Source: a phage. Taken from it: DNA of 64,000 nucleotides. The stretch lies in sequence record PZ583741.1. One strand, 5' to 3'. The translations under genes were made by a program, and so were the position numbers. Below are positions 15,055-42,370 of this stretch, piece after piece. The notes beneath the pieces were generated by a model. The model was not told where the DNA came from, searched no databases, and saw only the letters and a list, made by a program, of their open reading frames with translations. Every line of letters begins with the position of its first letter. The first letter of the stretch is position 1.

Positions 15055-15060
15055 AAATAA

Positions 15061-16470: not shown

Positions 16471-17764
<1,294 letters not shown>

Positions 17765-17778
<14 letters not shown>

Positions 17779-18688: not shown

Positions 18689-18743
18689 CCCGCTCAGAAG
18701 GGTTTTGTTATAGTTAGTTCACACCAAACGAGAGGAAATAAAG

Positions 18744-22048: not shown

Positions 22049-22561
22049 ATGAATTGGCATGATTATTTTGAATACAAAGATGGGAAGATTTACTGGAAAG
22101 ATTACGATAGCGAGAAGCTTGGAAGGAGAAGGATACAGCGAAGATTCATAGGGAAAGAGGTTGGCGGCATTGATAAAAGCCTAGGGTATGTTAGGGTAAA
22201 CATGCCTGGTAAAAAATATTGGGTTCATAGAATAATCTGGGAAATGCATAACGGAGCAATACCAGAAGGTATGCAAATTGACCATATAAATCATGTTAGA
22301 AATGATAACAGGATAGAAAACATTAGGTTAGTTACAATTCAGGAAAATAGAAAGAATCAGTCAATAAATTCTAGGAATAAGACCGGGGTTACCGGAGTCT
22401 GCATAGTATCTAGGACTGGCAAGTATGTAGCTCAAATAAAAAAGGATGGAGAGAATATTCACTTGGGATTCTTTGATAATATTCACGACGCATCGATTGT
22501 CAGGGCGAGGGCTGAATTTATTCTTGGGTATCATAAAAACCACGGGAGGAAAGATGAGTGA
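22049..22561 (+). CDS. HNH homing endonuclease with AP2-like domain
   Basis: 170 aa; HRIIWEMHNGAIPEGMQIDHINH; overlaps the large terminase start. Confidence 0.75.
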   Translation: MNWHDYFEYKDGKIYWKDYDSEKLGRRRIQRRFIGKEVGGIDKSLGYVRVNMPGKKYWVHRIIWEMHNGAIPEGMQIDHINHVRNDNRIENIRLVTIQENRKNQSINSRNKTGVTGVCIVSRTGKYVAQIKKDGENIHLGFFDNIHDASIVRARAEFILGYHKNHGRKDE

Positions 22562-24125
22562 TTTGATAGTTTGGGATGAGTTAAATCATGCGCAGAAGAT
22601 GGCTATCAAGGCCATCTCTGAGCATAGTTTCGAGGGGTTCTTGCGGTGTTTCTTCCAGATAACTCAGGGCGAGAGATTCAAAATGAATTGGCATGCGAAG
22701 TACCTTTGCCGCGTCATTGATGAGATTCTTGAGGGTAAGAGAAAGGATACCATCATAAACGTATCTCCGGGATCTGCCAAAACCGAACTGTTTAGCATCC
22801 ACTTCCCTGTATATAGCATGATTAAGATTAAGAAGGTTAGGAATCTTAGTTTGTCGTTCTCTGACTCATTGGTTAAGCGCAACTCCAAGCGCGTAAGGGA
22901 TTTGATAAAATCAAAGGAGTTCCAGGAGCTTTGGCCCTGCACCTTTGGAACGTGCAGGGATGACGAGATTCAGGTTCTTGATGAGAATGGCAAAGTTAGG
23001 TTTGAGTCTATATCTAAGGCGATGGCTGGTCAGGTGACAGGAAGCAGGGGCGGCTACATGACTGACGATTATAGTGGTTGCATAATGCTGGATGACCCAC
23101 TAAAGCCTGATGACGCGTTAAGTAATGTAAGAAGAGAGGCTGTCAATATGCTTCTCAAGAACACAATCCGTTCACGTCGAGCTAGCTCAGTAAAGGGAAA
23201 AGAAACGCCAATACTTTCCGTGCAGCAAAGACTTCATGTTCTGGACACTAGCCACTTCATGGAGTCAGGGCAAATGGGCATAAAGTTCGACGTAGTGAAA
23301 GTTCCAGCCATAGTCACAGAGGATTACGCCGACACGCTTCCTGATTGGATCAAACAACAATTTATTGATGATGTTCTTTCATCACCATTTGTAGAGCGGG
23401 ATGGAGTTAAGTATTACAGCTACTTTCCGGCAAAGGAGTCAATAGAAGACCTGATGGCTATGTGGGATGCTGACCCGTACACGTTCCTTAGTCAGTACCA
23501 GCAGGAACCTGTAGCTCTGGGCGGCAATCTTATTAATGTGGATTGGTTCCAGCGCCTTAGTGATACATTCATACCTCCAGCCAAGTATGATTATCGATTC
23601 ATCACATGCGATACCGCGATGACCACTAAAAGTTACAGCGACTTCTCTGTTCTTCAGTTGTGGGGCTATAAAGATGCTAAGATTTACCTTATTGATCAGC
23701 GCAGGGGTAAATGGGAGGCCCCAGAGTTGGAGGCTGAACTTCTGGACTTTGAGAAGAAATCAAGGGCAACCAGTCAGTCAGATGGTATCCTCAGAAAGAT
23801 TATTATCGAGAAGAAAGCGTCTGGTATCGGCCTGATTCAATCAGCTGGCAGGGTTATGCGAACACCGATAGAGCCATACGTACCGGATAATGACAAGCTA
23901 ACCAGGGTGATGAGTGCACTACCACAGATTAAGGCTGGTAACGTAGTTCTTCCAGAGTCATCGCCGTGGCTAAACGGATTGCTCACTGAGGTTGCGGCTT
24001 TTACGGCAGATGACTCGCATAAGCACGACGACCAAATTGACTGTCTAACAATGGCGGTAAACCTTGTACTTAACATCGCTGATGATCCTAAGGCGAGACT
24101 GATGCGCATAGCGGGAATGAAATAG
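22554..24125 (+). CDS. terminase large subunit (family different from genome A)
   Basis: Walker A-like VSPGSAKT, ...IMLDDPLKPDD, nuclease-domain-like TCDTAMTT...SDFSVLQLWG; start at M37 of track ORF 22446. Confidence 0.75.
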   Translation: MSDLIVWDELNHAQKMAIKAISEHSFEGFLRCFFQITQGERFKMNWHAKYLCRVIDEILEGKRKDTIINVSPGSAKTELFSIHFPVYSMIKIKKVRNLSLSFSDSLVKRNSKRVRDLIKSKEFQELWPCTFGTCRDDEIQVLDENGKVRFESISKAMAGQVTGSRGGYMTDDYSGCIMLDDPLKPDDALSNVRREAVNMLLKNTIRSRRASSVKGKETPILSVQQRLHVLDTSHFMESGQMGIKFDVVKVPAIVTEDYADTLPDWIKQQFIDDVLSSPFVERDGVKYYSYFPAKESIEDLMAMWDADPYTFLSQYQQEPVALGGNLINVDWFQRLSDTFIPPAKYDYRFITCDTAMTTKSYSDFSVLQLWGYKDAKIYLIDQRRGKWEAPELEAELLDFEKKSRATSQSDGILRKIIIEKKASGIGLIQSAGRVMRTPIEPYVPDNDKLTRVMSALPQIKAGNVVLPESSPWLNGLLTEVAAFTADDSHKHDDQIDCLTMAVNLVLNIADDPKARLMRIAGMK

Positions 24126-24139
24126 CACAAATTGCTAAA
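24122..24139 (+). promoter_or_regulatory. B cassette motif (atagcacaaattgctaaa)
   Basis: 22 nt then TATAGT, then cacacaaaagagaggag. Confidence 0.55.
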
Positions 24140-24194
24140 CACTAAAGCCACGGATGGCGTATAGTTACTTCACACAAAAGAGAGGAGAAGAAAG

Positions 24195-24527
24195 ATGAAG
24201 GCAGTATTTAAAGGTTATAAAAAAGCTGGTCGTTTGGAATTTACTATTGGTAAGATTTATGAGTTATCAGAAACACGCGGAGTGGGTGGATATATGGTGG
24301 TGACTGATGACGGTGGCTTTCGGGCAATATTTATCCCAGACAACATCTATGATTTCGAGGTGTTGATCCCAGATGAATTTATCGGTAAAGAAAAGCAATT
24401 CAAATATTACATCAATGGCGAAGCTGTTTCTAAAGTCAAGTTCGATGATACACTGTTATGCGTCAAGGAATTTAAATCTGATGGCATTGATACATCATCA
24501 ATCAAGTTCGAAGTAAAATTCGAGTAA
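24195..24527 (+). CDS. cassette-associated hypothetical protein (paralog of 36172..36531)
   Basis: 110 aa ending FEVKFE; own cassette upstream and terminator downstream. Confidence 0.45.
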   Translation: MKAVFKGYKKAGRLEFTIGKIYELSETRGVGGYMVVTDDGGFRAIFIPDNIYDFEVLIPDEFIGKEKQFKYYINGEAVSKVKFDDTLLCVKEFKSDGIDTSSIKFEVKFE

Positions 24528-24548
24528 CCACAAAAGCTATGATAAACT

Positions 24549-24571
24549 AGCCCCTAAATGGGGCTTTTTTA
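24549..24571 (+). terminator. rho-independent terminator (agcccc-taaat-ggggct plus T6)
   Basis: Read directly. Confidence 0.7.
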
Positions 24572-24583
24572 TTGGAGAAAAAC

Positions 24584-25810
24584 ATGGTCAAGACAGACAG
24601 CTACGCCAATATCTTTCTAGGCGGCAGTGATGGTAGTGAGATTTACGGGAGCTTGCAGAACCAAGCGCCTACAATTCTGGCTTCGCTTTATGCGGATAAT
24701 GCACTGGTGCGTCGAATTATCGACACAATCCCGGAGACGGCATTAGCGGCAGGATTCCACATTGACGGCATTGATGACGAGCCTGCATTCTGGTCTCGCT
24801 GGGACTATCTGGAGTTGACAAGGCACATCAACGAAGCGTGGTCGTGGGCTAGATTGTTCGGTGGAGCGGCAATTGTCGCTATCGTTAAGGACAACAGAGC
24901 TCTAACAAGCCCAGTCAGAGAAGGTTCTGAGCTTGAAACTGTTCGCGTATACGACCGCACACAAGTAAAAGTCCAAACTCGAGAGGAGAATCCGCGCAAC
25001 GCACGTTTTGGTAATCCACTAACCTATCGCATCACCACTAATGAGAGCGATATGTTTTACGATGTGCATTACAGCCGCATTCATATCATCGACGGAGAGC
25101 GAATCCCTAACGTAATGCGTCGGCAAAATGATGGCTGGGGCCGCAGCGTTCTCTCCAGTGATATTCTTGACTCAATCAAGGATTACACCAACTGCGAACG
25201 ACTAGCGACTCAACTGCTCAAGCGTAAACAGCAAGCGGTCTGGAAAGTCAAGGACCTGGCATTGCTTTGTGATGATAGTGAAGGAGTTGGCGCGGCTCGT
25301 TTACGTCTCGCTCAAGTTGATAACAACAGCGGAGTTGGTCAGGCAATTGGCATTGATGCGGAATCGGAAGAATACAGCATTCTGAACTCTGATATTGGTG
25401 GGATTGATGCGTTCCTGGATAAGAAGTTCGACAGAATCGTTGCTCTGAGCGGCATCCATGAAATAATCCTGAAGAACAAGAACGTCGGCGGCTTATCATC
25501 AAGCCAGAATACAGCGCTTGAGACATTCCATAAGCTAGTCGATCGAAAGCGTAACGCTGAACTGCTGCCGATTCTCGGGTTCCTGATTCCGTTCATTTCA
25601 GACGAGCAAGAATGGTCAGTGGAGTTTAATCCTCTGGCTCAGGAATCAAGTAAAGATAAAGCGGAGACCCTTGAGAAGAACGTAAACAGTATAGCAACAC
25701 TAATTGCAGCTGGCGCTATGGATACTAGCGAAGCGCGTGATACACTACGAACTATCGCGCCAGAGATTAAGATTGGCGATGGCAATATCGAACCTAAAGA
25801 ACCAGTCTAG
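24584..25810 (+). CDS. portal protein
   Basis: 408 aa from ATG 24584 (track 24572 is a TTG); follows terminase; homologous blocks with A ORF 16480. Confidence 0.6.
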   Translation: MVKTDSYANIFLGGSDGSEIYGSLQNQAPTILASLYADNALVRRIIDTIPETALAAGFHIDGIDDEPAFWSRWDYLELTRHINEAWSWARLFGGAAIVAIVKDNRALTSPVREGSELETVRVYDRTQVKVQTREENPRNARFGNPLTYRITTNESDMFYDVHYSRIHIIDGERIPNVMRRQNDGWGRSVLSSDILDSIKDYTNCERLATQLLKRKQQAVWKVKDLALLCDDSEGVGAARLRLAQVDNNSGVGQAIGIDAESEEYSILNSDIGGIDAFLDKKFDRIVALSGIHEIILKNKNVGGLSSSQNTALETFHKLVDRKRNAELLPILGFLIPFISDEQEWSVEFNPLAQESSKDKAETLEKNVNSIATLIAAGAMDTSEARDTLRTIAPEIKIGDGNIEPKEPV

Positions 25811-25879
25811 GAAGCAATGGCGACGACAGAGGAACCTAATGAATGATGAATTTGATGGCTTTTAGTGAGGAGAATTGGG

Positions 25880-26965
25880 ATGTCTAAAGCCCGCTATGAC
25901 AGTGTAAAGTTTAAAGCAACAATCGACGAGAATGGATTCTTAGTTGACACTCCGGTAGTCGCTCGTCTCGGCGTGCAAGTCTACTACATGGAAGATGGTC
26001 GAACGGTTCGAGAGTTTCGCCCGGCAGAGGAGGTTTTCAATGATGAATCTCTGGCAAGCTACCAGGGTAAGCCAATGACTCTTGATCATGTTTTCGTTAA
26101 CTCAGAGAACGCTAAAGAGGTAGTAGTCGGCTCAGTTGCTGGAAAGGCAGAGCCATTAGGCAGCTCCGTGGTTGCTCCAATTGTTATTTACGATAATGCC
26201 GCCATTCAGGAAGCTATGTCAGGTAACGCAAAGGAGTTATCCGTTGGATACTCATCAGTCATTGATTACACCCCAGGTTGGGGTGACCCTGTTACTGGTG
26301 AGTACTTCCTTAAGTCTGAAAGTGAGCTATTCGACGTACCAGAAGGATGGCAGGAGTTCGACGCAATTCAGCGTGACATTAAAGTGAACCATCTCGCAAT
26401 GGTATATCGCGGTCGCGCAGGTATTGCCAAATTGAATATGGACGGTGAGCAGGAAAACCCGTATACTACTGACGTTGATATCAATAAAGAGGATAAACAG
26501 GAAATGATTAAGATTAAACTAGACGGCGCGCAGGAATTCGAAGTCGCCCCAGAAATCGCTTCTCACATCGAAGCGCTGAACGCAAAGGCTGACACTGCAA
26601 TCGCAGAGCGCGACTCGCTGAAAGCTAAGGTAGATGCAATTCCAGCTGAAATCGAGAAAGCAGTAGCTAAAGCTAAAGCTGATGCCGATGCCCTAGCCGC
26701 TCTGGTTGCTGTTGCTGCTGAAGCTGGTGTTAAGGCTGACGGCCTGGATGCTAAAGGCATTAAAGTTGCTTACGTTAAAGAAGTCTCCAGTCTTGATGTT
26801 TCCGAGAAGTCTGACGCTTACATCGACGCAGCGTTCGACATTGCCAAAGAATCTGATAAAATGGCTGAAGTACGTAAAGCGACTACCGCTTCCGACAAAT
26901 CTGACAGCGCCGAAGAGCCTAAGAAATTAGACCCGCGTGCTCGTTTAGCTAAAATTAAGAAATAA
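25880..26965 (+). CDS. putative head scaffolding / maturation protein
   Basis: 362 aa; Ala/Lys-rich coiled-coil C-terminal half; position between portal and capsid. Confidence 0.4.
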   Translation: MSKARYDSVKFKATIDENGFLVDTPVVARLGVQVYYMEDGRTVREFRPAEEVFNDESLASYQGKPMTLDHVFVNSENAKEVVVGSVAGKAEPLGSSVVAPIVIYDNAAIQEAMSGNAKELSVGYSSVIDYTPGWGDPVTGEYFLKSESELFDVPEGWQEFDAIQRDIKVNHLAMVYRGRAGIAKLNMDGEQENPYTTDVDINKEDKQEMIKIKLDGAQEFEVAPEIASHIEALNAKADTAIAERDSLKAKVDAIPAEIEKAVAKAKADADALAALVAVAAEAGVKADGLDAKGIKVAYVKEVSSLDVSEKSDAYIDAAFDIAKESDKMAEVRKATTASDKSDSAEEPKKLDPRARLAKIKK

Positions 26966-26977
26966 GGAGTTATAAAC

Positions 26978-27487
26978 ATGGCAATTCGTTCCGTAGCACT
27001 GGCTGGTATGGTTTCTGATACCTCTCTGTATAACATCGACGGCGCTTGCGTAGTTGGCGGCAGCGATGCAATTCCGGTTGGTACTGTTGTTGGTGTAACA
27101 GCCGCTCAGCCTATAGATGGTCACAAAGTTGTTGGCCTTCCAGCTGTAACTGGCACGGCAGTTAAACCTTATGGTGTTGTTGTTAAATCTCATTACGAGA
27201 CTCCAGATGGCACAGCTCGCGTAAATGAAGCAGTTAACGTAATGACTCATGGTCGCATCTGGGTTCGCACCACTTTAGCAGCCGCGCCAGTTTTTGGTAG
27301 CAAGGTTTTCGTAAACGCAAGTGGTGTAGTTGTTGCTGAAGCGGCTACTACTACTTGGGAAACTGGTTTTACATTTGCTGGCGGTTACATCGCAAACACT
27401 GGCACAGACCCACAAAACCTGAGCGTTGATGGTGCCCTAGTTGAGGTTCAGCTTATCCAATCCACGGACTCAACCGTTGCAGCATAA
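26978..27487 (+). CDS. putative head decoration or accessory capsid protein
   Basis: 169 aa Gly/Val/Thr-rich ORF immediately upstream of major capsid. Confidence 0.3.
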   Translation: MAIRSVALAGMVSDTSLYNIDGACVVGGSDAIPVGTVVGVTAAQPIDGHKVVGLPAVTGTAVKPYGVVVKSHYETPDGTARVNEAVNVMTHGRIWVRTTLAAAPVFGSKVFVNASGVVVAEAATTTWETGFTFAGGYIANTGTDPQNLSVDGALVEVQLIQSTDSTVAA

Positions 27488-27504
27488 TAGTTAAGACTAA
27501 ACTA

Positions 27505-27527
27505 ACCCGCTTCGGCGGGTTTTTTAT
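27505..27527 (+). terminator. rho-independent terminator (acccgc-ttcg-gcgggt plus T6)
   Basis: Read directly. Confidence 0.75.
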
Positions 27528-27610
27528 TGCCTATCATCTCATCATTGCGTGGTCTAAAAACTCGTGTATAATGAACACGTAGACACCTAACTGAAAAGGA
27601 ACAATAAAGA

Positions 27611-28552
27611 ATGGCCATTAAATTTGATGCAGAACAAGCAAAAATCACCGCTCATCTCGAGCAAATGGGCGTAGACAAAGCTGATGCCGCTGGTATCTGG
27701 ACCGTTAAGCAACTGACCGCCAATCTGGCACGTGCTTACGAAAAAGAATATCCAGACAACTCCGTTGTTAATATCTTCCCTGTAACCAATGAAATCCCAG
27801 GTCATGCGAAATATTTCGAATATCCAGAATTTGACGGCGTTGGCATTGCTCAGATTATCGCTGATTACTCTGACGACTTGCCGCTGGTTGATGCGTTTAT
27901 GACAGAGAAACAAGGTAAAGTGTTCCGCTTCGGTAACGCGTTCCTGATCTCTACTGATGAAATCAAAGCTGGCGCTGCTACTGGTCAATCGCTGTCATCT
28001 CGTAAGCAGGCGTTGGCATTCGAAGCGCACGATAACCTGTTGGATAAACTGGTATGGTCCGGCTCTACACCGCACGGCATTCCTAGCGTATTCGACCATC
28101 CGAACATCAACAACGTTGTTGCTGGTACGTGGAACTCCGCAGCTGCCGCCATGACTGATATTACCGCACTTATTGATGCAATCGAGACTTCGACTAATGG
28201 CACTCACACCGCAACTGATATTCTGCTGCCTGCTTCCGCTCGCCGCTTGATGCAAGAGCTGGTTCCTAACACCTCTATCAGTTACGCGCAGCTGTTCGCC
28301 ACCAACAACTCGGGTATCAATCTGCGTTACCTTCAGTTCCTGGATAACTACGATGGCGCAGGCGGCAAAGCTGCTCTGGCTTTTGAGAAGGATGCATTAA
28401 ATATGTCTATCGAGATCCCGGAGGCCACTAACGTACTTCCTGGTCAAATGAAGGATTTACATATCAAGTACCCCGTAACCTCTAAGGCTACAGGTTTGAT
28501 TTTATATCGTCCTCTGACGATGGCGGTAATGAAAGGCATTACCTACGAGTAA
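27611..28552 (+). CDS. putative major capsid protein
   Basis: 313 aa; own promoter-like region and strong terminator; position in head module. Confidence 0.5.
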   Translation: MAIKFDAEQAKITAHLEQMGVDKADAAGIWTVKQLTANLARAYEKEYPDNSVVNIFPVTNEIPGHAKYFEYPEFDGVGIAQIIADYSDDLPLVDAFMTEKQGKVFRFGNAFLISTDEIKAGAATGQSLSSRKQALAFEAHDNLLDKLVWSGSTPHGIPSVFDHPNINNVVAGTWNSAAAAMTDITALIDAIETSTNGTHTATDILLPASARRLMQELVPNTSISYAQLFATNNSGINLRYLQFLDNYDGAGGKAALAFEKDALNMSIEIPEATNVLPGQMKDLHIKYPVTSKATGLILYRPLTMAVMKGITYE

Positions 28553-28557
28553 TAAAT

Positions 28558-28582
28558 GGCCCTCTTCGGAGGGCTTTTTTAC
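28558..28582 (+). terminator. rho-independent terminator (ggccctc-ttcg-gagggct plus T6)
   Basis: Read directly. Confidence 0.75.
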
Positions 28583-28644
28583 GTCTGTACCAAATGGAAT
28601 TGTTGGGTTATAATCACTCAATCAGATAAACAAAGGAGACAAAA

Positions 28645-28890
28645 ATGATTCGTTTAGAACACACTGGCGCTTGCCTTATCGTTTACAGTGGCGAGAAATA
28701 TCTACCTGGTGACACTTTCGAGGTTGATGTAATTTGCGACGGACTAAAGCGTTTAATCGCAGAGGGCAAACTCACCATTGATGGTGATGCCAAAGCAACC
28801 AAACAGATTGCGCAGGAAGTTGTTAGCAAGAAAAAGCGCAAGGAACCGAAAACCATCTCCGAAGCTGAGACTGGCAACGAGTACAAATAA
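28645..28890 (+). CDS. hypothetical head-associated protein
   Basis: 81 aa ORF. Confidence 0.35.
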   Translation: MIRLEHTGACLIVYSGEKYLPGDTFEVDVICDGLKRLIAEGKLTIDGDAKATKQIAQEVVSKKKRKEPKTISEAETGNEYK

Positions 28891-28931
28891 CAAACAGGGG
28901 GCTTAGGCCTCCTTTATTGTATGGAGCTAAT

Positions 28932-29333
28932 ATGAATGATGCAATTTTGGCGTTTATGCGCTCACTCGTTCCTGCGCTCAAGGCAGTGGATGACGAATCA
29001 ATTAATGTATGGATTGATTTGGCACGTCTATACGTATGCGAAAGCAAGTTTGGCGCAGACAAAGATAAGGCAGTAGGACTTTACGCATTACACTTGATGC
29101 TTGCTGATGGCGCATTTAAGGGTGAGAATGAAGGATTGGAAACATACAGCCGTAGAATGGCAAGTTATGCACTGAGCGGTGAATTCTCTATCACCTACGA
29201 TAACCAATCAGCAATCCAGGGTGATTTATCATCTTCCTCCTGGGGTCGTATGTACAAAGCACTGCTCCGCAAGAAAGGTGGCGGCTTTGGATTGATTACT
29301 TCCGCTGGTGGCGGTGGGTGCGGTTGCCGATGA
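28932..29333 (+). CDS. putative head-tail connector / head completion protein
   Basis: ATG 28932; positional. Confidence 0.3.
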   Translation: MNDAILAFMRSLVPALKAVDDESINVWIDLARLYVCESKFGADKDKAVGLYALHLMLADGAFKGENEGLETYSRRMASYALSGEFSITYDNQSAIQGDLSSSSWGRMYKALLRKKGGGFGLITSAGGGGCGCR

Positions 29334-29701
29334 ACTACAGCGAAATCGAATCAATCACTCGCTCTGGAATTAACTTCTTTAGTGATGCTAATGGTGTTTA
29401 CGAGATGAGCACTGGCGCTGGATATGTTGAAATCGTTAACGGAGTTGAAGTAGAAGTGCCAGCGCAAACATTCCAGCTAAAAGGCTTAGTGCGAGAAATC
29501 AAGACGCGCGATATTGATGGTGAGTTTATCCAGTTTGGCGATAAGCGCGGAATCTTCACGGCTCAGGTGGAAATTAAGCAGGGTTATCAGATTAAAGTTG
29601 ATGGTGAGACTTTTGTTGTCGTTGACCCGCGCCCAGTTAAACCGACTGGCACAGTTGTTGGGTATAGACCGATTCTTCGTAGGGTGGCTACTTATGGCTA
29701 G
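29330..29701 (+). CDS. putative head-tail joining protein
   Basis: ATG 29330 overlapping upstream stop; positional. Confidence 0.3.
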   Translation: MNYSEIESITRSGINFFSDANGVYEMSTGAGYVEIVNGVEVEVPAQTFQLKGLVREIKTRDIDGEFIQFGDKRGIFTAQVEIKQGYQIKVDGETFVVVDPRPVKPTGTVVGYRPILRRVATYG

Positions 29702-30131
29702 AAATATTGGAAGCGTTGCTACGTTTGAGAAATCTATTGCTGACTGGATTGACAGAGCAGATAATGGATTTGAAATTGTAGTAGCTAATACAGTTACCAA
29801 GACAGCTAATGCAATTGTTGACCTTTCTCCTGTCGACACTGGTAGGTTCAAAGCTAACTGGCAAATCACCGCAAACTCACCAGCTCAGCAATCACTGAAT
29901 GAGTACGATCAGACTGGTGGGCAGACAAAAACATATCTCGCCAGACAGGCTAGAGCTGTCGCCAACTCAAAAGCTACGAGTGTTATTTATATAACCAACC
30001 GACTTGATTACGCTGCTGGGCTTGAGTATGGGGCATCAAATCAGGCTCCAGCTGGCGTTTTGGGTGTTGTGCAAGCAAGGTTGGGCAGGTACTTCCAGGA
30101 AGCGGTAGAGGAGGCTCGTCGTGCAATATGA
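29694..30131 (+). CDS. putative neck / tail completion protein
   Basis: ATG 29694; track ORF 29514 is over-extended. Confidence 0.3.
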   Translation: MARNIGSVATFEKSIADWIDRADNGFEIVVANTVTKTANAIVDLSPVDTGRFKANWQITANSPAQQSLNEYDQTGGQTKTYLARQARAVANSKATSVIYITNRLDYAAGLEYGASNQAPAGVLGVVQARLGRYFQEAVEEARRAI

Positions 30132-30522
30132 ATTATCATTAGCAGCAAGGAAATTCGTCAACGATTTGTTGGTAAATGAATTTCCGGTCAGGTATCCAGT
30201 TGCGTGGGAGAACGCTAAGTTTACTCCTCCTGTCGATGGCTCAATCTGGCTTAAGTACGACTACACGGAAGTTGACACCGTAACTTACGGATTAAGCAGG
30301 AAGTGCAAATACTACGTAGGCATGGTGCAGATTTCAGTATTCTTCAGTCCTGGTACTGGAATTGATAAGCCGAGACGTATTGCTAATCAATTGGCAGAAT
30401 CTATCGTTGATGGTACAATGCTTGACAGCGGGACCATTTATGAGTCTGGAGTTGTTAACCCCGTTATCAAATCCAAGTCTGGGTGGTTTATCCCGGTTCG
30501 TTTTTATGTTCGTCTAGACTAA
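30121..30522 (+). CDS. putative tail terminator protein
   Basis: 133 aa; GTG start overlapping upstream stop; immediately upstream of major tail. Confidence 0.3.
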   Translation: MQYELSLAARKFVNDLLVNEFPVRYPVAWENAKFTPPVDGSIWLKYDYTEVDTVTYGLSRKCKYYVGMVQISVFFSPGTGIDKPRRIANQLAESIVDGTMLDSGTIYESGVVNPVIKSKSGWFIPVRFYVRLD

Positions 30523-30537
30523 CAAAAGGAAAAATAC

Positions 30538-31194
30538 ATGGCTCATTTATCAAACGGCACCCAGGTGTTCGTAGAAGGCTCTCGCGGAACTGCAATTGAC
30601 GTAACAGCAATTTCTAACGCAGTTACACCTGTTTTAACTGTATCTGACGCATCAGGCTTGGTTGTTGGTGATTACCTGCTTTTCACCTCCTCTGCTTCGA
30701 CGCTTCTGGCTGACAAGCAGGTTCGCGTAACTGCAATCTCTGGCACGTCAGTAACTGTTGAAGGTATTGATACATCCAGCACTACCAAGTTCCCAGCTGG
30801 TTTAACTGGTGAAGTTGTTAAGATCACTTCATGGTTCGAAGTTCCTTGTGTTCAGGATGTATCTACTGATGGTGGCGAACAGCAATTCGTTAACTTCCAG
30901 TGTCTTTCTGATGACCGTGAACAGCAGATTCCTACTTATAAGTCTGCGGTAACGAACACCTTCACCTTCGCTCACGAGTACACCAACCCGGTCTATCCGG
31001 TTCTGCGTAACTACGATGAGTCAGGTCAGGTTGTTGCAATTCGCCTGTTCGTACCTCGCGCTCAGGAAATGCGCTTGCAGTCCGGCACTATCGCTTTCAA
31101 CGACACCCCTACCATTGGTGTTAACGAAATCGAAACGGTATCCATCGCAGTATCCATTCGTGGTCGCCTGTCCTCTGTGGCAGCTGAAGTTTAA
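30538..31194 (+). CDS. putative major tail protein
   Basis: 218 aa, RBS aaaggaaaaatacATG, strong terminator downstream, upstream of chaperones and tape measure. Confidence 0.5.
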   Translation: MAHLSNGTQVFVEGSRGTAIDVTAISNAVTPVLTVSDASGLVVGDYLLFTSSASTLLADKQVRVTAISGTSVTVEGIDTSSTTKFPAGLTGEVVKITSWFEVPCVQDVSTDGGEQQFVNFQCLSDDREQQIPTYKSAVTNTFTFAHEYTNPVYPVLRNYDESGQVVAIRLFVPRAQEMRLQSGTIAFNDTPTIGVNEIETVSIAVSIRGRLSSVAAEV

Positions 31195-31200
31195 AGCATA

Positions 31201-31222
31201 AACCCTCTTCGGAGGGTTTTTT
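31201..31222 (+). terminator. rho-independent terminator (aaccctc-ttcg-gagggtt plus T6)
   Basis: Read directly. Confidence 0.75.
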
Positions 31223-31277
31223 ATTGCTACCAACCTGCTATAATGCAATCTCACAAACAATAAGAGGATTAACTAAG

Positions 31278-31592
31278 ATGGCAAAGTTCAAACTTTCACT
31301 GGCGGCACTCCCAGACTTTAAGCTACCAGTAAAATTTAAGCTGGCTAACGACCAGGATGTAGAGGTTATCTTTACAGTCAAGCACAAGAAAACATCAGAG
31401 CTTCAGGTGTTACTACAGAAAGAAGACCTGAGTACTAAAGAATTGATTATGGCAATCGCCTCTGATTGGGACTTGGAAGAGGAATATAACGAGGATAACG
31501 TTAATGAGTTCTCTGACCTGTTCCCAGCTTCAACCGTTGCCCTTACTACCGCTTATATGCAAGCGCTTGCTGGTCAGCGAGTAAAAAACTAA
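31278..31592 (+). CDS. tail assembly chaperone (G-like)
   Basis: 104 aa acidic protein directly upstream of tape measure; ends at slippery site. Confidence 0.55.
   Translation: MAKFKLSLAALPDFKLPVKFKLANDQDVEVIFTVKHKKTSELQVLLQKEDLSTKELIMAIASDWDLEEEYNEDNVNEFSDLFPASTVALTTAYMQALAGQRVKN
31583..31589 (+). other. slippery heptamer A_AAA_AAC for programmed -1 ribosomal frameshift
   Basis: Codons gtA AAA AAC then TAA; the -1 frame is open through 31912. Confidence 0.5.
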
Positions 31593-31912
31593 AACGAGCG
31601 GTGTATCTACAGTACCAGTCAGAGCCAACTGATGCCGAACTGGAAGCTATTGGGATGCGCCGCTCTGATTACGAAGACGAAGAGCCTGAGGTTTTGCACT
31701 TTGACGACAACATGATGAAGGCGTGGGACATTTATTGCTCAATGGCTACGCAGTGGAGAGTCGGAGCTAACGGAGCTACAGGCCTAGATTACAACGTGCT
31801 AAACTTCCTCTTTAGAGTGTATAATGTTTCTGAAGAAGAATTGGTACTCAGCGATTTACGCATCCTTGAAGCTAAGGCTCTTGAGATGATGGATAACCTG
31901 AGAAAAAAATAA
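31589..31912 (+). CDS. -1 frame extension of tail assembly chaperone (GT-like fusion C-terminus)
   Basis: ORF 31601..31912 lies in the -1 frame relative to 31278..31592. Confidence 0.45.
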   Translation, partial: LKRAVYLQYQSEPTDAELEAIGMRRSDYEDEEPEVLHFDDNMMKAWDIYCSMATQWRVGANGATGLDYNVLNFLFRVYNVSEEELVLSDLRILEAKALEMMDNLRKK

Positions 31913-31933
31913 CCCGCTTCGGCGGGTTTTCTA
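31912..31933 (+). terminator. hairpin acccgc-ttcg-gcgggt with short U-run
   Basis: Read directly. Confidence 0.5.
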
Positions 31934-31947
31934 TTATGGAGGCTTAG

Positions 31948-34923
31948 ATGGCAACAAATGAATTAGCCGGAATCACACTAGCCGTAGACGTCTCGCAGGT
32001 AGACAGGGGAACGCAATCCCTACAAAAGTTCAGACAGGCCAACCAACAGGCTGCATCTGGGATTAGTGAGTTCGTCAATGCTGAGCAGGTTGCTAAAAAC
32101 CAGGCTAGAGATACCGCTCGCGCACTTGCTGAGCAACAGGCATCTTTAGCTAAATTGCAAACAGCTATTGACCCAACTGCGGCAAAATTCCGCAAGCTGC
32201 AGGAGGCTGCTGTAGGTCTTGATAAGGCGTTCGCTGCTGGAGTGGTTCCCGATGAGGAGTTTTTCCGCTTAGGCGAGGCACTTGAAACGCAGAATGCAAA
32301 ACTTGCTCGTTCACGTGCGGCGCTAACTGAAGAGGGTAGAGCAGCTGCTCAGGCTGCAAAAGATAAAGCAAAAGCAAAGGCTGAAGCGGATAGATTTATC
32401 GCATCACTTGAGCGTCAGGCTCAGGCGGCAACATTGACGCGTGAGGAGTACCTAAAGTTACAAGCGGCCCAGCTTGGAGTAAGTTCTCAGGCAGCGCCTA
32501 TTATTGACAGAATCGCCGATGCATCACAGAAGGCAAACACCCAGCTAATTGCTCAGAGCAAGGCTTTTCAACGATCTGGCTTAAGCGCTGGTCAATACAA
32601 GAACGCAATTTCTCAGCTGCCAGCGCAGATTACTGATATTGGCACGTCGCTTGCTGGCGGCATTCCTATTTGGCTTATTGCAATTCAGCAAGGTGGGCAG
32701 ATCAAGGATTCATTTGGCGGTATTGGTAACACCTTTAGATTCGCGCTTGCAGCCTTAAACCCATTTAATGTAGCTGTTGGTGTTTTGGGTGGCGCACTTA
32801 TTGCTCTTGGTGTTGGTGCAGCTCAGGCTGAAAGTGAATTCAGAGCATTAAACTCCGCAATTGCTTTCTCCAACAACTCTACAATCGCATCAATCTCACA
32901 GGTTAGAGAGTTGGTTAGCTCTGTTTATGATGCAACAGGTGCTACCAGAGGACTTGTGACTAGCATCGCAACAAGCCTTATTGAGCAAGGGAACCTTACG
33001 CTGACGCAGATTGACAAGATTACTAAATCGACCGCAAGATGGGCGCAGTTGACAGGTAAGGATGCGAAGGAGATTACTGGTTACTATAACCAGATTGCAA
33101 GCGACCCAATCCAGGGTTTAGTTGATTTGGATAAGCGCTTTAACTTCCTCACACAGGGGCAGTTGACGACAATCGAAAACCTGAGAAAGACAAAGGGAGA
33201 AGTTGAGGCCGTTACTGCTGCGATTGATATTTTCAGCAAGTCTCAGGAAGCCAACCTTAACGACATAGCTGCGCAGTTAACTCCGCTTGAGCTAGCCTGG
33301 AATGATTTCAGAAAGTACATCTCTGATATCTGGGATGCAATTAGTCGTAGAACTGTCGGGGCGCTGAACCTATTTGTTGACGTAATCGCCGGAACGATTG
33401 AACAGATCAGGGTATTCATTAACCAGGGTGATGTTCTGATTGGTGAATTCGTAATTAGCGCAACTCAGGCATTGCAGAACATTCCTGGTCTTGATGGCGT
33501 TGGTGATGATGTTATCAAGGGGCAGCAGAAGATTATCGATGCCGCCAAGAAGCAAAACCTTGAGCTAGAGAAGTCTATCAAGGAGCGAGATGCCAGAATC
33601 AGAGAGGGAGAGCTTGGTTACGTTACTCGCAGAGAAAATCAGAATACAAATGAGCAATCAGGGACAGATGAGGAATTTGCAAAAAGGAAGAAGGCGCTTC
33701 AGGATGAGCTTGATGCGATCAAGAAGAACAGGAAAGAAGAAAATAGTAGGGTTAAGGAGCAAAGAGATTTAACAATTGGTTATGAATCTGGCGTTCTGGC
33801 GCTTCAGGCTCAACTCAAGGTGCTTCAGGAAAACAGGGATATTGGCGCAGTAATAAGCAATGAGCGCAAGCAGTATCTTCATGAGGAGGCCAAATTCAGG
33901 ATTCTTGAGCAGAGACAACTTGATGGCTCAATTACCAAAGAGCAAGCAAGACTTCTCATTGAAAAGGATAAAGTTCTTGAGTTAGCCAGACAGAAGGCTG
34001 AGCTAGGTGATCAGATTGCTTTGCAGGAGCGAGCTAATAAGTTAGCTGAAGATAACCGCAAGAAGATTCTTCAGATTAACAATGAGGCAAGTAACATTGA
34101 TTTGGGTGCTGGTTTATCATCTCGCGAGCAGCAGAGAGCCAAAGAGATTCAGGCTCTTCAATCCAATCAGGTTAATGCTGGTGGTTCTGTTGATGATGTT
34201 GATTTTCAGCAACTTCTCGAAGCAAGACGTAACTTTTATGCTCAGGAGGATGCGCTACGTGAAAACTGGCTCGCTGGCGTGAACCAATCCTTTGCTAACT
34301 GGGCTGAGAGCGCGACAGATGCATTCTCAATTGCTGGAAGTTTAACCACGACAGTCTTTGAAGGTATTACAGACCAGATTACAAACCTTGTAACCACTGG
34401 TGAGACGAACTTCAGGGAATTTACTGTTAGCATCCTTAAGCAGATTGCTAAGATTGCAACCCAGCTTCTTATTGTTAAGGCTATTGAGTCTAGCTTAAGT
34501 AGCTTCGGTGGCACCGGTGGCGCTATTGGTTCGATTGCATCTGGTTTTGGGTTCGCTGGTGGCGGATACACTGGTGACGGCGGGAAGTATCAGCCAGCAG
34601 GAACGGTACACCGCGGTGAGTTTGTATTCACAAAAGAAGCAACAAGCCGAATTGGTGTTAAGAACCTATACGCACTAATGAAGGGTTACGCAAACGGCGG
34701 CGCTGTAGGCGGTCCATCTGGTTATGCTAATGGCGGATTGGTTTCTGGTGGAACTGATGTTAATGTTAGCGGCATCACTGTTAACGTGAACTCTGGTGTT
34801 GGAAGTGATCAAGAACAAGCTAAGGCACTGCAAAATGGAGTTAAGGCAATCGTAGCTGAAGAGATTGCTCAGTCCTTCCAGCAGGGTGGCAGGGCGTATG
34901 CTTACCTTCGCGGATTCAACTAA
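31948..34923 (+). CDS. tail tape measure protein
   Basis: 991 aa, long coiled-coil Ala/Gln/Lys-rich regions, Gly-rich C-terminus. Confidence 0.8.
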   Translation: MATNELAGITLAVDVSQVDRGTQSLQKFRQANQQAASGISEFVNAEQVAKNQARDTARALAEQQASLAKLQTAIDPTAAKFRKLQEAAVGLDKAFAAGVVPDEEFFRLGEALETQNAKLARSRAALTEEGRAAAQAAKDKAKAKAEADRFIASLERQAQAATLTREEYLKLQAAQLGVSSQAAPIIDRIADASQKANTQLIAQSKAFQRSGLSAGQYKNAISQLPAQITDIGTSLAGGIPIWLIAIQQGGQIKDSFGGIGNTFRFALAALNPFNVAVGVLGGALIALGVGAAQAESEFRALNSAIAFSNNSTIASISQVRELVSSVYDATGATRGLVTSIATSLIEQGNLTLTQIDKITKSTARWAQLTGKDAKEITGYYNQIASDPIQGLVDLDKRFNFLTQGQLTTIENLRKTKGEVEAVTAAIDIFSKSQEANLNDIAAQLTPLELAWNDFRKYISDIWDAISRRTVGALNLFVDVIAGTIEQIRVFINQGDVLIGEFVISATQALQNIPGLDGVGDDVIKGQQKIIDAAKKQNLELEKSIKERDARIREGELGYVTRRENQNTNEQSGTDEEFAKRKKALQDELDAIKKNRKEENSRVKEQRDLTIGYESGVLALQAQLKVLQENRDIGAVISNERKQYLHEEAKFRILEQRQLDGSITKEQARLLIEKDKVLELARQKAELGDQIALQERANKLAEDNRKKILQINNEASNIDLGAGLSSREQQRAKEIQALQSNQVNAGGSVDDVDFQQLLEARRNFYAQEDALRENWLAGVNQSFANWAESATDAFSIAGSLTTTVFEGITDQITNLVTTGETNFREFTVSILKQIAKIATQLLIVKAIESSLSSFGGTGGAIGSIASGFGFAGGGYTGDGGKYQPAGTVHRGEFVFTKEATSRIGVKNLYALMKGYANGGAVGGPSGYANGGLVSGGTDVNVSGITVNVNSGVGSDQEQAKALQNGVKAIVAEEIAQSFQQGGRAYAYLRGFN

Positions 34924-34953
34924 TTAACGGGGCTTCGGCCCCTAAGGATTTTT

Positions 34954-35304
34954 ATGGCTATTGATACATTTAATTACTGCACTCAAGTCCAAAATGGAGG
35001 CGGCTCATTCTCTAACACAAACAATGTGAGAATTGTTAGTTTTGGCAATGGTTACGAGCAGCGTGGAACGGGTGGCTATCGCAGCAATAAGCGAAGCTAC
35101 CAGATGACATACACCAACAAGGACTGGCGCGAGGTGATGGACTTTTGCTTCAATCACATCATCACACCATTCTTCTGGAAAACACCGCAAGGTGATACTT
35201 CTATGTTTGTTATTCAGCAGGATAGCATTTCAGTTACACCAATTAGTAGCGAAGTTCAGACTGTAAACATGCAATTCGTGGAAGTCTTTAGCTCAATGCG
35301 TTAA
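34954..35304 (+). CDS. minor tail protein (lambda M-like position)
   Basis: 116 aa directly after tape measure. Confidence 0.45.
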   Translation: MAIDTFNYCTQVQNGGGSFSNTNNVRIVSFGNGYEQRGTGGYRSNKRSYQMTYTNKDWREVMDFCFNHIITPFFWKTPQGDTSMFVIQQDSISVTPISSEVQTVNMQFVEVFSSMR

Positions 35305-35342
35305 ACTAAGCCCTATTAGGGGCTTTTTTATTGGAGATATAT

Positions 35343-36098
35343 ATGTTAAGTCCAAAGTTTGAAAATCAGTTGCAAAGCCTTTTCCCGGGTGAGATTGTTA
35401 CTCTAATCCAGGTTGACGGAACCTCATTTGGAAGTCTCGTTTATTCGTTCCATAATGAGAACATTTCATACACACCAGAAGAGATTATGCTAGCCCAAAT
35501 GAATGGCGAGCCACTGCCAGAGAAGACAATTACATTCCGCGGCGAAGAGTATGGCCCAAGACCATTTGGTATCTCTGGTATCAATATGACTTCTGACGGC
35601 AAGGCTAACAAGGTTACGTTAACGGTATCAAACGTGGACCAGCGCATTAGCGCATTGATTCGCACATATAACGGACTTGTTAAGGCAAAGGTTACTATCT
35701 GGATCACCACGCGCGACAATATCAATGAAGACGGAAGTATTGCTGATGGGGACTATCGCAGATTTGTTTACTTCATTGAGAGGCCAAAGCAGGTTGATTA
35801 CAAAACGGCATCATTTGAGCTAAGTAGCCCGATGGATATGGATGGCATTTACATCCCAGCGAGACTTGTTCAGTCAGTTTGCTATTGGGCCTCTAGGGGT
35901 TGGTATCGTAGCGGTAATGGTTGCGACTATGCTGGCAATAGATACTTCAATAAGGATGATGAGCCAGTGGCAGACCCTTCATTAGACTTCTGTGCAGGAA
36001 CAGTTAACAGTTGCAAGCTTAGATTTGGTGAGAATAACCAACTTTCATTTGGTGGCTGCGCGGCGGCAAGCCTTCAGGCAAAGGCGAATCAGAGTTAA
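35343..36098 (+). CDS. minor tail protein (lambda L-like position)
   Basis: ATG 35343 (track 35331 is a TTG); C-terminal Cys cluster. Confidence 0.45.
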   Translation: MLSPKFENQLQSLFPGEIVTLIQVDGTSFGSLVYSFHNENISYTPEEIMLAQMNGEPLPEKTITFRGEEYGPRPFGISGINMTSDGKANKVTLTVSNVDQRISALIRTYNGLVKAKVTIWITTRDNINEDGSIADGDYRRFVYFIERPKQVDYKTASFELSSPMDMDGIYIPARLVQSVCYWASRGWYRSGNGCDYAGNRYFNKDDEPVADPSLDFCAGTVNSCKLRFGENNQLSFGGCAAASLQAKANQS

Positions 36099-36116
36099 AT
36101 AGCACTTTTTGCTAAA
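36099..36116 (+). promoter_or_regulatory. B cassette motif, variant (atagcactttttgctaaa)
   Basis: Then ggatggcgTATAGTtacc and cacacaaacgagagg. Confidence 0.5.
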
Positions 36117-36171
36117 GACGAACAGCAAAGGATGGCGTATAGTTACCTCACACAAACGAGAGGATATAAAA

Positions 36172-36531
36172 ATGTTCTACATTGAATTCAACGGATACAG
36201 AAAAGACAAAGGAGAGTGCGGTGGTTTATTTTCTGTTGGTAAAACTTACGCATGTGATGTTGTTGACTCAGGCTATCAGGTTATGGATGATGAAGGTAAA
36301 GCTGTAAAATTTAGAAGCATGTTTTATGATAATTATTACATCTTTTCACGAGTTGAACATAATGAGGTGGAGGTCAATTTGTTAAGTGATACGAATGATG
36401 GCAAGATGAAATATAGAATGAATGGTATTGATGTTACTAAGTCATTCTTTGATGAAAAACTGATTGAGGCTGAGGGGCTTAAATCCAAGGGTGTTTCAGT
36501 GCTTATAGATTTTGAGGTTTATTTTGAATAA
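36172..36531 (+). CDS. cassette-associated hypothetical protein (paralog of 24195..24527)
   Basis: 119 aa ending FEVYFE; inserted between tail genes. Confidence 0.45.
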   Translation: MFYIEFNGYRKDKGECGGLFSVGKTYACDVVDSGYQVMDDEGKAVKFRSMFYDNYYIFSRVEHNEVEVNLLSDTNDGKMKYRMNGIDVTKSFFDEKLIEAEGLKSKGVSVLIDFEVYFE

Positions 36532-36589
36532 ACTAAATTAGTGTTAAACTAGGTCAATCGAAAGGTTGGCCTTTTTTATTGGAGATAAA

Positions 36590-37348
36590 ATGTTAACACC
36601 AAAAGTTAAGCTGGAAATCTTCCAGCACGCAAAAGAAGTCTTCCCGCATGAGTGCTGCGGGATTGTTACGCAGAAAGGTAGGGCGCAGAAATACCACAGA
36701 ATCAAGAACGCCAGCAAAGACCCTGAAAATGAATTCATCCTTGATTCAAATGAGTATGCAGATGTTCTCTTTGAGTTGGCTCACAATGAATCTATTGTTT
36801 ACGTAGTCCACTCCCATACTGGTGATGGAGCGACAACGAGGCCTAGCCCAGCAGATATCTGTAGCTGCAATGAATGCGAGATTCCGTATGTTATCGTAAG
36901 TATCCCAGAGGGAGATATGCGGATTCTTGAGCCATCAACCATGCCTCTGATTGGTCGCCCATGGGGGCTTGGTAGCTTTGATTGCTGGGGGCTGGTTATG
37001 TCGTTTCACAAGAAATACGGCGTCAAACTGAATGACTACCGAGTTAATTACCAGTGGTGGGAGAAGAAGTACAGCGAAAATATCTATGACGACAACTGGA
37101 TTAAGGAAGGATTTGAACTGGTAAAAACTTCAGATATTCCAATTGGCTCAATGATTATGATGCAGGTGCAAAGCGAGGTTACTAACCACGCAGGAATCTA
37201 CATTGGCAATAACAGATTCATACATCACCTTTATGGTAAAATGAGTTCTATAGATATTTATTCCGATTACTGGCGCGAGCGCACGGTGCGAATCGTTCGC
37301 CACAAGGATTTAACGGAGGATGTGAGTTATGACCAAGAAACTGATTGA
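36590..37348 (+). CDS. tail assembly protein K-like (JAB/MPN plus NlpC/P60-like)
   Basis: HECCGIV...VHSHTGDG JAB-like motif; C...H residues in C-terminal half. Confidence 0.55.
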   Translation: MLTPKVKLEIFQHAKEVFPHECCGIVTQKGRAQKYHRIKNASKDPENEFILDSNEYADVLFELAHNESIVYVVHSHTGDGATTRPSPADICSCNECEIPYVIVSIPEGDMRILEPSTMPLIGRPWGLGSFDCWGLVMSFHKKYGVKLNDYRVNYQWWEKKYSENIYDDNWIKEGFELVKTSDIPIGSMIMMQVQSEVTNHAGIYIGNNRFIHHLYGKMSSIDIYSDYWRERTVRIVRHKDLTEDVSYDQETD

Positions 37349-41398: not shown

Positions 41399-42370
41399 TT
41401 AGTAGAAGTTTGGAATGAATGGAAGTGCCATTGATATATTTGTGTCGAAAGGGAACTGAGCGCCTGATTGCGTCGAGTAGTTACCAATTACAGTACCTGG
41501 CACTGCTCTAACGTTACCACCAGACATGCAAATGCCCTTGTATCGCAAGTTGTTATACCCTCCAGTAACTCTAGTCGTAGCGCCACATCTAAGAAGCGGG
41601 AAGAATCCACCATTTATTGACTGATATACATTGCTTATTTGTATAAATCCACTAAGTACAAATGGTCGCCTAACGCTGGAGAAAACAATCTGACCAGAGC
41701 TATTTGACATTGTAAGACCAGGTCCAGCTACTGGAGGTTCATTCCTGAATATCACCAACTGAACGTAAGTGCTTGCCGCCACATCATCTATACCACCATA
41801 GTTTACATCACGGCACCATATCGTACTCCCATCACTCTCCAGAGACACGTTTGGATTATCCCACTTACCGAATGGTATTCCACTGACTGGCAGTGCTGAT
41901 GATCCGTTAACCTGAATACCACCAACCCATGCCGCTGACATTAGCCGTGAGTTGCTTGATATTGCCAAGAAGTCAGTTGAGTTTTCAACTAGTATTCCTG
42001 GGCTTGATGAAGATGAGGCTGGTAGAATTTCAAAACAATTACCCGCAAAGTCAATTATTCGACCATTGGCTCCGTTAAAGTTACTAAGTGTTATCCTGCC
42101 AGTGCCGTCATTTACCTTTTGGAATCCGTTCATGTAATAAACTTCTGGTATAACATCGTAAGCGTCAACGTGGACCGCCTTCGTTGGTAGGCAGAAAGCC
42201 GTAGAGCCAGGAGACATTGTCAATCTAAAATCCCACGAACTTGCTGGGGTTGAAAGTCCATTGGTATTTATTGATCCAGTCACAGCAGGTGCCCTTAACC
42301 CTGCCGTAATTTCCATCGCTGGCCTTCCGTCATTAAGGTCAATCAATATACCATGAGGCATTATTTCCAC
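41399..42370 (-). CDS. hypothetical Gly/Ser/Asn-rich protein (possible fibre-like or exclusion-associated)
   Basis: 323 aa; second gene of a minus-strand two-gene cassette. Confidence 0.4.

Follow-up and report, generated by a model that had tools for sequence, protein, structure and literature searches.

Two paralogous genes behind putative promoter cassettes in the late structural operon of an Rtp-like coliphage: candidate moron-type cassettes at variable gene junctions

Two related genes at two structural-gene junctions

We describe here two small open reading frames (ORFs), ORF A and ORF B, lying among the late structural genes of a phage in sequence record PZ583741.1; all positions refer to the whole stretch of 64,000 nucleotides that was analysed (the window). 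ORF A (24195..24527, + strand) encodes 110 residues (12.6 kDa, pI 5.3) and ORF B (36172..36531, + strand) encodes 119 residues (13.8 kDa, pI 4.7). Both proteins are acidic and soluble, with no transmembrane segment or signal peptide predicted. The conserved start of ORF B is the ATG at 36172, which is served by a Shine-Dalgarno (SD) sequence; the program-made ORF list begins it at the TTG at 36109. Both genes belong to the part of the window running from 17652 to its end, which is the genome of a virulent Rtp-like coliphage (Drexlerviridae, Braunvirinae-like), and everything reported on them lies wholly inside that genome. Between 22000 and 38000 it is fully syntenic with its relatives, at nucleotide identities of 94% to vB_Ec-G8 (G8), 90% to SU57 and 86.5% to Rtp.

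ORF A occupies the junction (slot 1) between the gene for the large terminase TerL (22446..24125, +; Pfam Terminase_6C, 96-97% amino acid identity to TerL of Rtp, SU57 and FP) and the portal gene (24584..25810, +; Phage_portal_3, E=2.4e-67). ORF B occupies a second junction (slot 2) in the tail-tip region, between a gene for a lambda L-like minor tail protein (35343..36098, +; Phage_tail_L, E=7e-45) and a lambda K-like tail tip gene (36590..37348, +; Prok-JAB and NlpC_P60). The Pfam matches thus bear out the neighbours named in the first-pass annotation of this DNA, which had placed both genes at these positions; the peptides that it quoted are recovered in the translations.

That annotation had also proposed that the two genes share sequence, and formal alignment and profile searches agree. 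Indeed, pairwise BLASTP aligns A and B with 46/122 identities (38%, E=3e-9), and both match the same family, PHROG 14592 (phrog_14592), over their full length (A residues 1-110, E=9.9e-35; B residues 1-119, E=6.4e-34). A and B are true paralogues. A further ORF at 53174-53374 (66 residues), which stands behind the promoter cassette most like that of A, was considered as a third paralogue and rejected (hhalign probability 5%).

The morons of the lambdoid phages HK97 and HK022 reportedly consist of a promoter, an ORF and a terminator set between late genes that are adjacent in relatives, and are said to have an atypically low GC content, to be variably present and to be dispensable for virion formation. 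In the present genome, whose overall GC content is 44.0%, A has 36.6% and B 34.2%, and the genes next to them have 42.5-48.6%, so that the base composition of both departs, as that of morons does, from the genes around them. Furthermore, the flanking genes are directly adjacent in relatives at both slots, which is the moron arrangement.

Promoter cassettes, terminators and slot borders

The regions upstream of the two genes (24120-24186 and 36097-36164) are 85% identical across 68 bp. Each holds a DR box ATAGCACnnnTTGCTAAA (AAATAGCACnnnTTGCTAAA), a -10 hexamer TATAGT and a common leader with its SD, TCACACAAAmGAGAGGA. In cassette A, the box AAATAGCACAAATTGCTAAA (24120..24139, +) is an imperfect palindrome, TAGCA-N5-TGCTA, centred at about -42 from the inferred start site; the TerL stop codon TAG (24123-24125) lies inside AAATAGCAC, the start of this box. 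The hexamer (24160..24165, +) begins 21 nt past the 17-nt box core ATAGCACnnnTTGCTAA and is followed by the leader TACTTCACACAAAAGAGAGGAGAAGAAAG (24166..24194, +). Cassette B has the same layout, with the box AAATAGCACTTTTTGCTAAA (36097..36116, +) overlapped at its start by the TAA stop codon of the L-like gene (36096-36098), the hexamer (36138..36143, +) 22 nt past the 17-nt core, and a leader with SD, TACCTCACACAAACGAGAGGATATAAAA (36144..36171, +), found by comparison to be nearly identical to that of A. In both cases the core begins 73 nt upstream of the ATG.

The claim that each gene has its own cassette promoter stands insofar as box, hexamer and leader precede each ORF. It does not stand as a peculiarity of the pair, for a search for the pattern locates the DR box about 20 times in this phage genome, for example at 17951, 18671, 19109, 20165, 45105, 53092, 56871 and 63663 on the + strand, and at 42689, 43448, 60430, 60861 and 62059 on the - strand. 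Behind them stand small ORFs of the early region, recombination genes, a cor-like lipoprotein gene, an HNH gene and others. In 19/20 boxes a -10-like hexamer (TATAGT, TATAAT, TATTAT or similar) starts 20-22 nt after the core, as counted by eye from the printed sequences, and the leader CAyCrAAACGA is usually conserved after it. From about -20 to the SD, the cassette of A resembles that of B more closely than any other of this promoter class, and the reverse is also true.

A direct repeat (DR) of this kind, aaATAGCACnnnTTGnTAAAA, has been described in phage TLS, where it is 21 nt long and occurs at 21 sites, each preceding a start codon by about 76 nt. T1, Rtp and Rogue1 have it too, and its role was left open between a stoperator, an enhancer and an UP element (PMC11447400). 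The elements upstream of A and B agree with the consensus aaATAGCACnnnTTGnTAAAA, with its orientation relative to transcription and with its distance to the start codon. The cassette promoter of the first-pass annotation is thus the family-wide DR-type element aaATAGCACnnnTTGnTAAA previously described for TLS, T1 and Rtp. It shares with the repeats and "transcriptons" of TLS and T1-like phages (PMC11447400) the same 5' element, the distance of about 73-77 nt to the gene and the intergenic position between terminators. The TLS paper (PMC11447400) does not contain this gene family, its paralogy or its slot polymorphism, and the 20-22 nt spacing to the -10 hexamer is added here.

A canonical sigma-70 promoter was considered and rejected: TTGCTA stands 22 nt from TATAGT, and the alternative TAAACA-18-TATAGT of cassette A is not conserved in other copies. 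We infer instead that the DR box would act as an upstream promoter element, the centre of its palindrome, at about -42, corresponding to the position of a class-II activator site. A Cro-like helix-turn-helix protein of the phage (50105-50614, -), which gives a sub-threshold Pfam hit, could conceivably bind it.

Other occurrences of the box deserve mention. Several DR promoters carry a GC-rich hairpin and T-run inside the spacer between box and -10 hexamer, for example AAAGCCCTTCGGGGCTTTTCCTGTATATT, at 18671-18720 (+) and 60861-60810 (-); at such spacers the terminator of the upstream gene appears to sit within the next DR promoter. Downstream of the DR cassette at 42689 lies a gene for a small lipoprotein (42361-42606, -; lipobox MMVGC), whose counterpart in G8 is annotated as a Cor-type superinfection-exclusion gene. 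The box is also found in the 92-kb Logan contig SRR19776930_3888 (locus L012, 6416-6435 and 6650-6669), which encodes DnaB, an HNH-AP2 protein and a family-A DNA polymerase and whose DNA is only weakly similar to that of rV5-like phages; the DR box is therefore not confined to Drexlerviridae.

The two units differ at their 3' ends, where intrinsic terminators are called at 24549-24565 (A) and 36551-36572 (B). After A comes an intrinsic terminator, AGCCCCTAAATGGGGCT plus a T-run (24549..24571, +), followed by the portal ribosome-binding site (RBS) TTGGAGA. This is the native terminator of TerL and lies outside the insert, for it is kept in the empty slots of FP, DTL and BEK6. After B comes a terminator borne by the cassette, AGGTCAATCGAAAGGTTGGCCT plus a T-run (36551..36578, +), then an imported RBS, TTGGAGATAAA; this hairpin and T-run are absent from empty slots. 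A terminator of its own, as in a moron, can thus be assigned to B, and to A only in effect.

Every occupied slot has the same order. The upstream gene ends in a stop codon that overlaps AAATAGCAC; promoter, leader and ORF follow, then about 12 nt, GTG(A/T)TAAACTAG, a hairpin, TTTTTTATTGGAGA and the ATG with which the downstream gene starts. Empty sites of slot 1 also contain the hairpin GCCCC...GGGGC and the RBS, so that the insert there is promoter plus ORF alone, between the TerL stop codon and the native terminator. In slot 2, the empty site is a compact junction, TAAGGGGGAACAATG, with its own SD (5 phages); in the occupied one the terminator GGTCAATCGAnAGrTTGGCC is followed by TTTTTTATTGGAGA, and a new, imported RBS replaces the native junction TAAGGGGGAACAATG. 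A scan of IMG/VR with the slot-2 terminator motif returned phiEB49 itself and nothing else. The copy that JulesPiccard carries between its M and L genes is bordered by GTTAA/A on its left and by the T-run plus ATTGGAGA on its right; both motifs are met again at several junctions between structural genes.

Occupancy and exchange of the slots among relatives

We compared the slots in 15 phages including the window, family members being assigned by tblastn and a family hidden Markov model (HMM). Slot 1 holds a family member in 10/15: the window, G8, SU57, 2725-N35 (N35), Rtp, IME253, BEK3, JulesPiccard, AugustePiccard (where it stands in tandem with an HNH gene) and phiEB49. It is empty in the other 5/15 (FP, DTL, BEK6, OzMSK and JeanPiccard). 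Slot 2 is more varied, with a family member in 6/15 (window, G8, SU57, BEK6, AugustePiccard, phiEB49), an HNH endonuclease gene in 3/15 (Rtp, DTL, JulesPiccard), a Rha gene on the opposite strand in 1/15 (IME253, locus L019 15572-16069, minus) and nothing in 5/15 (FP, N35, BEK3, OzMSK, JeanPiccard). A third junction, between the M and L genes, contains a family member in JulesPiccard (1/15) and the native terminator junction in all others (14/15). The JulesPiccard copy has a C-terminal domain of the slot-2 type (63-77% identity), and the slot-2 hairpin replaces the native M/L hairpin. All four combinations of presence and absence of A and B occur among the 15 phages, and each complete genome (window, G8, phiEB49) has exactly two family copies.

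The comparison with relatives that the first-pass annotation had called for accordingly finds neither slot filled throughout: slot 1 is empty in five phages, and slot 2 is empty in five and held by HNH or Rha genes in four more. As close relatives lack one or both, the units are dispensable. The same comparison shows that they sit in intergenic hot-spots held by HNH homing endonuclease genes or a Rha gene in other relatives, and that they have moved between the TerL/portal, L/K and M/L junctions. Further HNH genes are found among relatives at the TMP/M and I/J junctions (loci L019 13930-14400 and 17535-18023; L020 12528-13004), and the tail-tip operon as a whole reads as a string of insertion hot-spots.

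A comparable small gene, rtp34-like and also DR-promoted, separates the major tail protein gene from the tail chaperone genes in Rtp, N35, FP, DTL, G8, BEK6 and others (loci L001 (Rtp) 10464-10927, L003 11495-11820, L006 38587-38835). It is missing from the window (31195-31260) and from SU57; being optional among relatives, it marks another cassette slot.

Could the inserts matter mainly as DNA? In such a case they would block target sites of HNH endonucleases at L/K and TerL/portal and prevent cleavage or marker exclusion by co-infecting relatives, the ORF being a passenger. This would suit the HNH genes at L/K in Rtp, DTL and JulesPiccard and the Rha gene there in IME253, the HNH genes at TerS/TerL (22049-22561 here), TMP/M and I/J in relatives, the fact that family member and HNH gene are mutually alternative at L/K in 15/15 phages, and the centring of recombination tracts on the slot. 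However, the two kinds of gene share slot 1 in tandem in AugustePiccard, and family members also occur at places without an evident HNH slot. Moreover, selection on the protein is indicated by dN/dS values that stay under 1 in each domain, by conserved residues and by a confident fold. We therefore hold this explanation to be very unlikely.

The dN/dS values of the family range from 0.13 to 0.80, against 0.01-0.06 for L, K and portal, which means that genes of the A/B family are real and constrained and yet evolve far faster; the N-terminal domain tends to evolve faster than the C-terminal one. Synonymous divergence is discordant with that of the flanks. Between the window and G8, dS is 0.03 for B, against 0.63 for L and 0.31 for K; between the window and phiEB49, which belongs to another subfamily, it is 0.195 for B against 2.3 for L. 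The sliding identities agree with these values: relative to phiEB49, 36150-36650 averages about 90% (82-96%), with about 60-86% in L and 44-82% in K, and relative to G8, 36100-36850 is 96-100% identical, mostly 100%, over a background of 80-98%. In slot 1, flanks about 88% identical to those of Rtp and N35 enclose an ORF whose identity falls to 28-62%. Furthermore, the slot-1 protein of N35 is 78% identical to A in the C-terminal domain and 26% in the N-terminal domain (amino acids), so that the breakpoint is the domain boundary.

Since the synonymous divergence of the cassettes lies below that of their flanks, horizontal cassette exchange is indicated, and we read these signatures as cassette replacement combined with such exchange. 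Exchange between phage lineages thus outpaces the divergence of the flanks, with breakpoints at the cassette ends and at the domain boundary.

The slot-1 copy of phiEB49 (locus L007 40194-40549, minus) is frameshifted exactly between the two domains. The annotated gp57 of phiEB49 (68 residues) is the SH3-like N-terminal domain alone, and tblastn finds the same two-piece pattern in ACG-M12, SCS31 and ECH1.

An opposite history would make A and B ancestral genes of the structural operon that were lost repeatedly, their shared upstream sequence reflecting a common promoter type only. This is plausible for slot 1 only, where the gene is present in 10/15 phages of two subfamilies, the empty sites resemble clean deletions with both cassette borders kept, and the terminator after A is native. 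Against it stand the GC content below that of the flanks, the cassette synonymous divergence far under that of the flanks across subfamilies, the compact native L/K junction with its own SD in 5 phages, the other occupants of L/K, and the M/L copy of a single phage among 15, which bears slot-2-type 3' sequences. Repeated loss is, in our view, most improbable as an account of the pair.

The protein family and its possible role

The A protein comprises an SH3-like N-terminal domain (residues 1-56), a variable linker and a beta-beta-alpha-beta C-terminal domain (residues 66-110). From the family alignment, AlphaFold2 predicts these two domains with confidence (pLDDT 87; 95 for the C-terminal domain modelled alone). 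The N-terminal domain is hypervariable and the C-terminal one more conserved. The family is small: a search of 1.84 billion proteins yields 47 representatives at E<1e-3, and a set of 5.8 billion proteins gives 36 and 26 hits. Scans of A and B against Pfam and NCBIfam gave nothing useful, the single hit being a sub-threshold one to NqrM, and a BFVD fold search returned significant matches to family members only. Sequence profile matches in the PDB (designed "Cake" propellers, the score summed over repeats, and a weak FABP match) were judged spurious. The remote profile matches are multi-repeat DUF7244/DUF6501 proteins, through which the N-terminal domain would be linked transitively to that barrel superfamily. 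The resemblance to Bas11 Gp54 (PDB 9axb) and to the small SH3-like phage proteins DUF7244 and DUF6501 is at the level of the fold only (16% identity); these proteins lack the C-terminal domain, and A and B have no direct Pfam match.

No sign of a nuclease of the HNH, GIY-YIG, LAGLIDADG or a similar type was found in A or B, either as a Pfam or NCBIfam match or as metal-binding motifs in the fold. In this they differ from the Rtp-like HNH genes (rtp20, rtp40), with which they share the slots, the upstream DR box, the low GC content and the variable presence: A and B combine an SH3-like barrel with a small alpha/beta domain. A superinfection-exclusion membrane protein was likewise considered and rejected, as A and B have neither a hydrophobic segment nor a lipobox.

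Most homologues occupy the same two slots of T1-like genomes, and two are found elsewhere. One (P0032, on a 92-kb contig) has DnaB/HNH/PolA genes on one side and small ORFs on the other; a perfect TTGACA-17-TATAAT promoter precedes it, and DR boxes lie just downstream. The other (P0024, on a 42-kb contig) is one of a row of small ORFs that stand ahead of primase/helicase genes.

These observations lead us to regard A and B as paralogous accessory cassettes of the moron type, set among the late structural genes of a virulent Rtp-like coliphage, a reading to which we give a probability of roughly 0.7. The view of the first-pass annotation, that they are independently transcribed accessory genes dropped into late operons, draws support from the putative promoters, the terminator and RBS of B, the low GC content, the discordant dS values and the third slot. 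Several points weigh against it. PHROG and RefSeq name the family "virion structural protein", and the types of C-terminal domain are correlated with the slot, a pattern that a structural partner at the site could explain instead of linkage. The 22 nt from TTGCTA to TATAGT are too many for a standard sigma-70 -35/-10 pair, and the TLS authors considered stoperator or enhancer roles for the DR repeat (PMC11447400). Empty slot-1 sites keep AAATAGC and CGTGATAAACTAG, as occupied ones do, and the direction of change, insertion or loss, is therefore not polarised. Finally, the literature that we searched contained no transcript, virion proteome or phenotype for any family member, which is why promoter activity, timing and protein function are matters that we infer here; nor did it contain T1-family transcriptomes or defence-escape mutations mapping to genes of the family.

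The first two of these points belong to a different proposal, in which the proteins are non-essential virion components for decoration or assembly, one near the portal and head and one at the tail tip, docked by the C-terminal domain and exposing the N-terminal one. The location inside the structural module, the label of PHROG 14592 and RefSeq and the segregation of C-terminal domain types by slot are in its favour; SH3-like domains are known in phage particle and lysis proteins, and decoration proteins may be dispensable. However, FP, OzMSK and JeanPiccard lack both genes despite structural proteins 90-98% identical, homologues in other phage types stand in early or replication gene arrays, the promoters of A and B are of the same class as those of early-region genes, and the slot-1 copy of phiEB49 is frameshifted. 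Linkage to the flank on the 3' side would also account for the correlation between slot and C-terminal domain. In proteomic studies of Rogue1 and the AHP24 group, which are related phages, no such protein is reported, though those phages may lack the gene. We looked in the literature for a proteomic source of the "virion structural protein" label and traced none. Given the early and replication contexts, the dispensability, the putative promoter of their own and the frameshifted phiEB49 copy, we consider the label unsupported and the family probably mislabelled. A virion role is in our estimation unlikely, and the genomic context leans against it: the family is not conserved as a structural gene would be, since relatives with 90-98% identity in the flanking structural proteins lack it and since it appears in early-gene contexts elsewhere.

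How would such moron-type cassettes work and move? The unit consists of a DR-type promoter (ATAGCACnnnTTGCTAAA, 21-22 nt, TATAGT), a conserved leader with SD and a low-GC ORF, to which B adds a terminator and a replacement RBS. Host RNA polymerase would produce from the DR promoter a short monocistronic mRNA for each gene, apart from late read-through, and the palindromic DR box may bind a phage factor. Relocation could proceed through short homologies at the junctions, namely the GTTAAA stop-codon context on the left and the terminator T-run plus ATTGGAGA on the right; involvement of the exonuclease VIII/Erf-type recombination genes annotated in G8 is speculation. The protein itself might be a non-essential cytoplasmic accessory factor, not a building block of the virion, with a variable SH3-like domain that binds a host or defence target, a suggestion that we make with low confidence.

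A bolder version would see the family as a mobile counter-defence or defence-decoy module of Drexlerviridae, in which the C-terminal domain is a scaffold presenting a diversifying SH3-like domain. The ends of the promoter-ORF-terminator-RBS unit would mimic the stop-codon and terminator-RBS motifs of structural-gene junctions, so that the unit could recombine into any of them, and double-strand breaks made by HNH enzymes at contested slots might aid this recombination. We find this extension rather improbable.

Compared with the morons of HK97 and HK022, A and B are alike in being inserted units of low GC content and variable presence. They differ in that their phage is virulent, which leaves no place for expression from a repressed prophage or for a benefit to the lysogen; that their promoter is of the phage family's own DR type and not foreign; and that two paralogous copies stand in one operon, with a copy in a third slot of a relative. 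The PeSL cassettes of T4-type phages are another likeness: they reportedly hold small ORFs between a conserved promoter and a stem-loop, their repeats serving as recombination points, and are said to be located in the early hyperplastic regions of large myoviruses. A and B, by contrast, are set among the late structural genes of a 46-kb siphovirus, and their right-hand homology is a terminator plus an RBS motif.

Morons, mosaic exchange and the DR repeat are already known; the family definition, the paralogy, the cassette borders, the three-slot polymorphism and the fixed geometry from DR box to -10 hexamer are new here. If correct, the moron-type reading provides a clean, sequence-resolved example in a virulent T1-like phage, with borders, three slots and exchange across subfamilies. 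The concepts of phage genome mosaicism are unchanged by it, and A and B are an ordinary kind of accessory gene, if a tidy example. The family would be a reasonable candidate for anti-defence or host-takeover screens, and the fixed distance from DR box to -10 hexamer makes the role of the DR repeat directly testable.

Two observations concern the window as a whole. A 127-bp exact repeat (17652-17778 = 63874-64000) shows that the Rtp-like genome wraps round, with a period of 46,222 bp (about 46.2 kb), and positions 1-17651 belong to an unrelated Segz_1-like siphovirus of Salmonella/E. coli (helicase, primase, terminase and portal genes), so that the stretch joins two phage genomes. The Rtp-like part also carries an HNH_3 homing endonuclease gene between TerS and TerL (22049-22561, +), with a DR box at 21977 and a GC content of 37.8%; 69 bp of this gene (22226-22294) have a counterpart with 85.5% identity at 16116-16184, in the other of the two phages.

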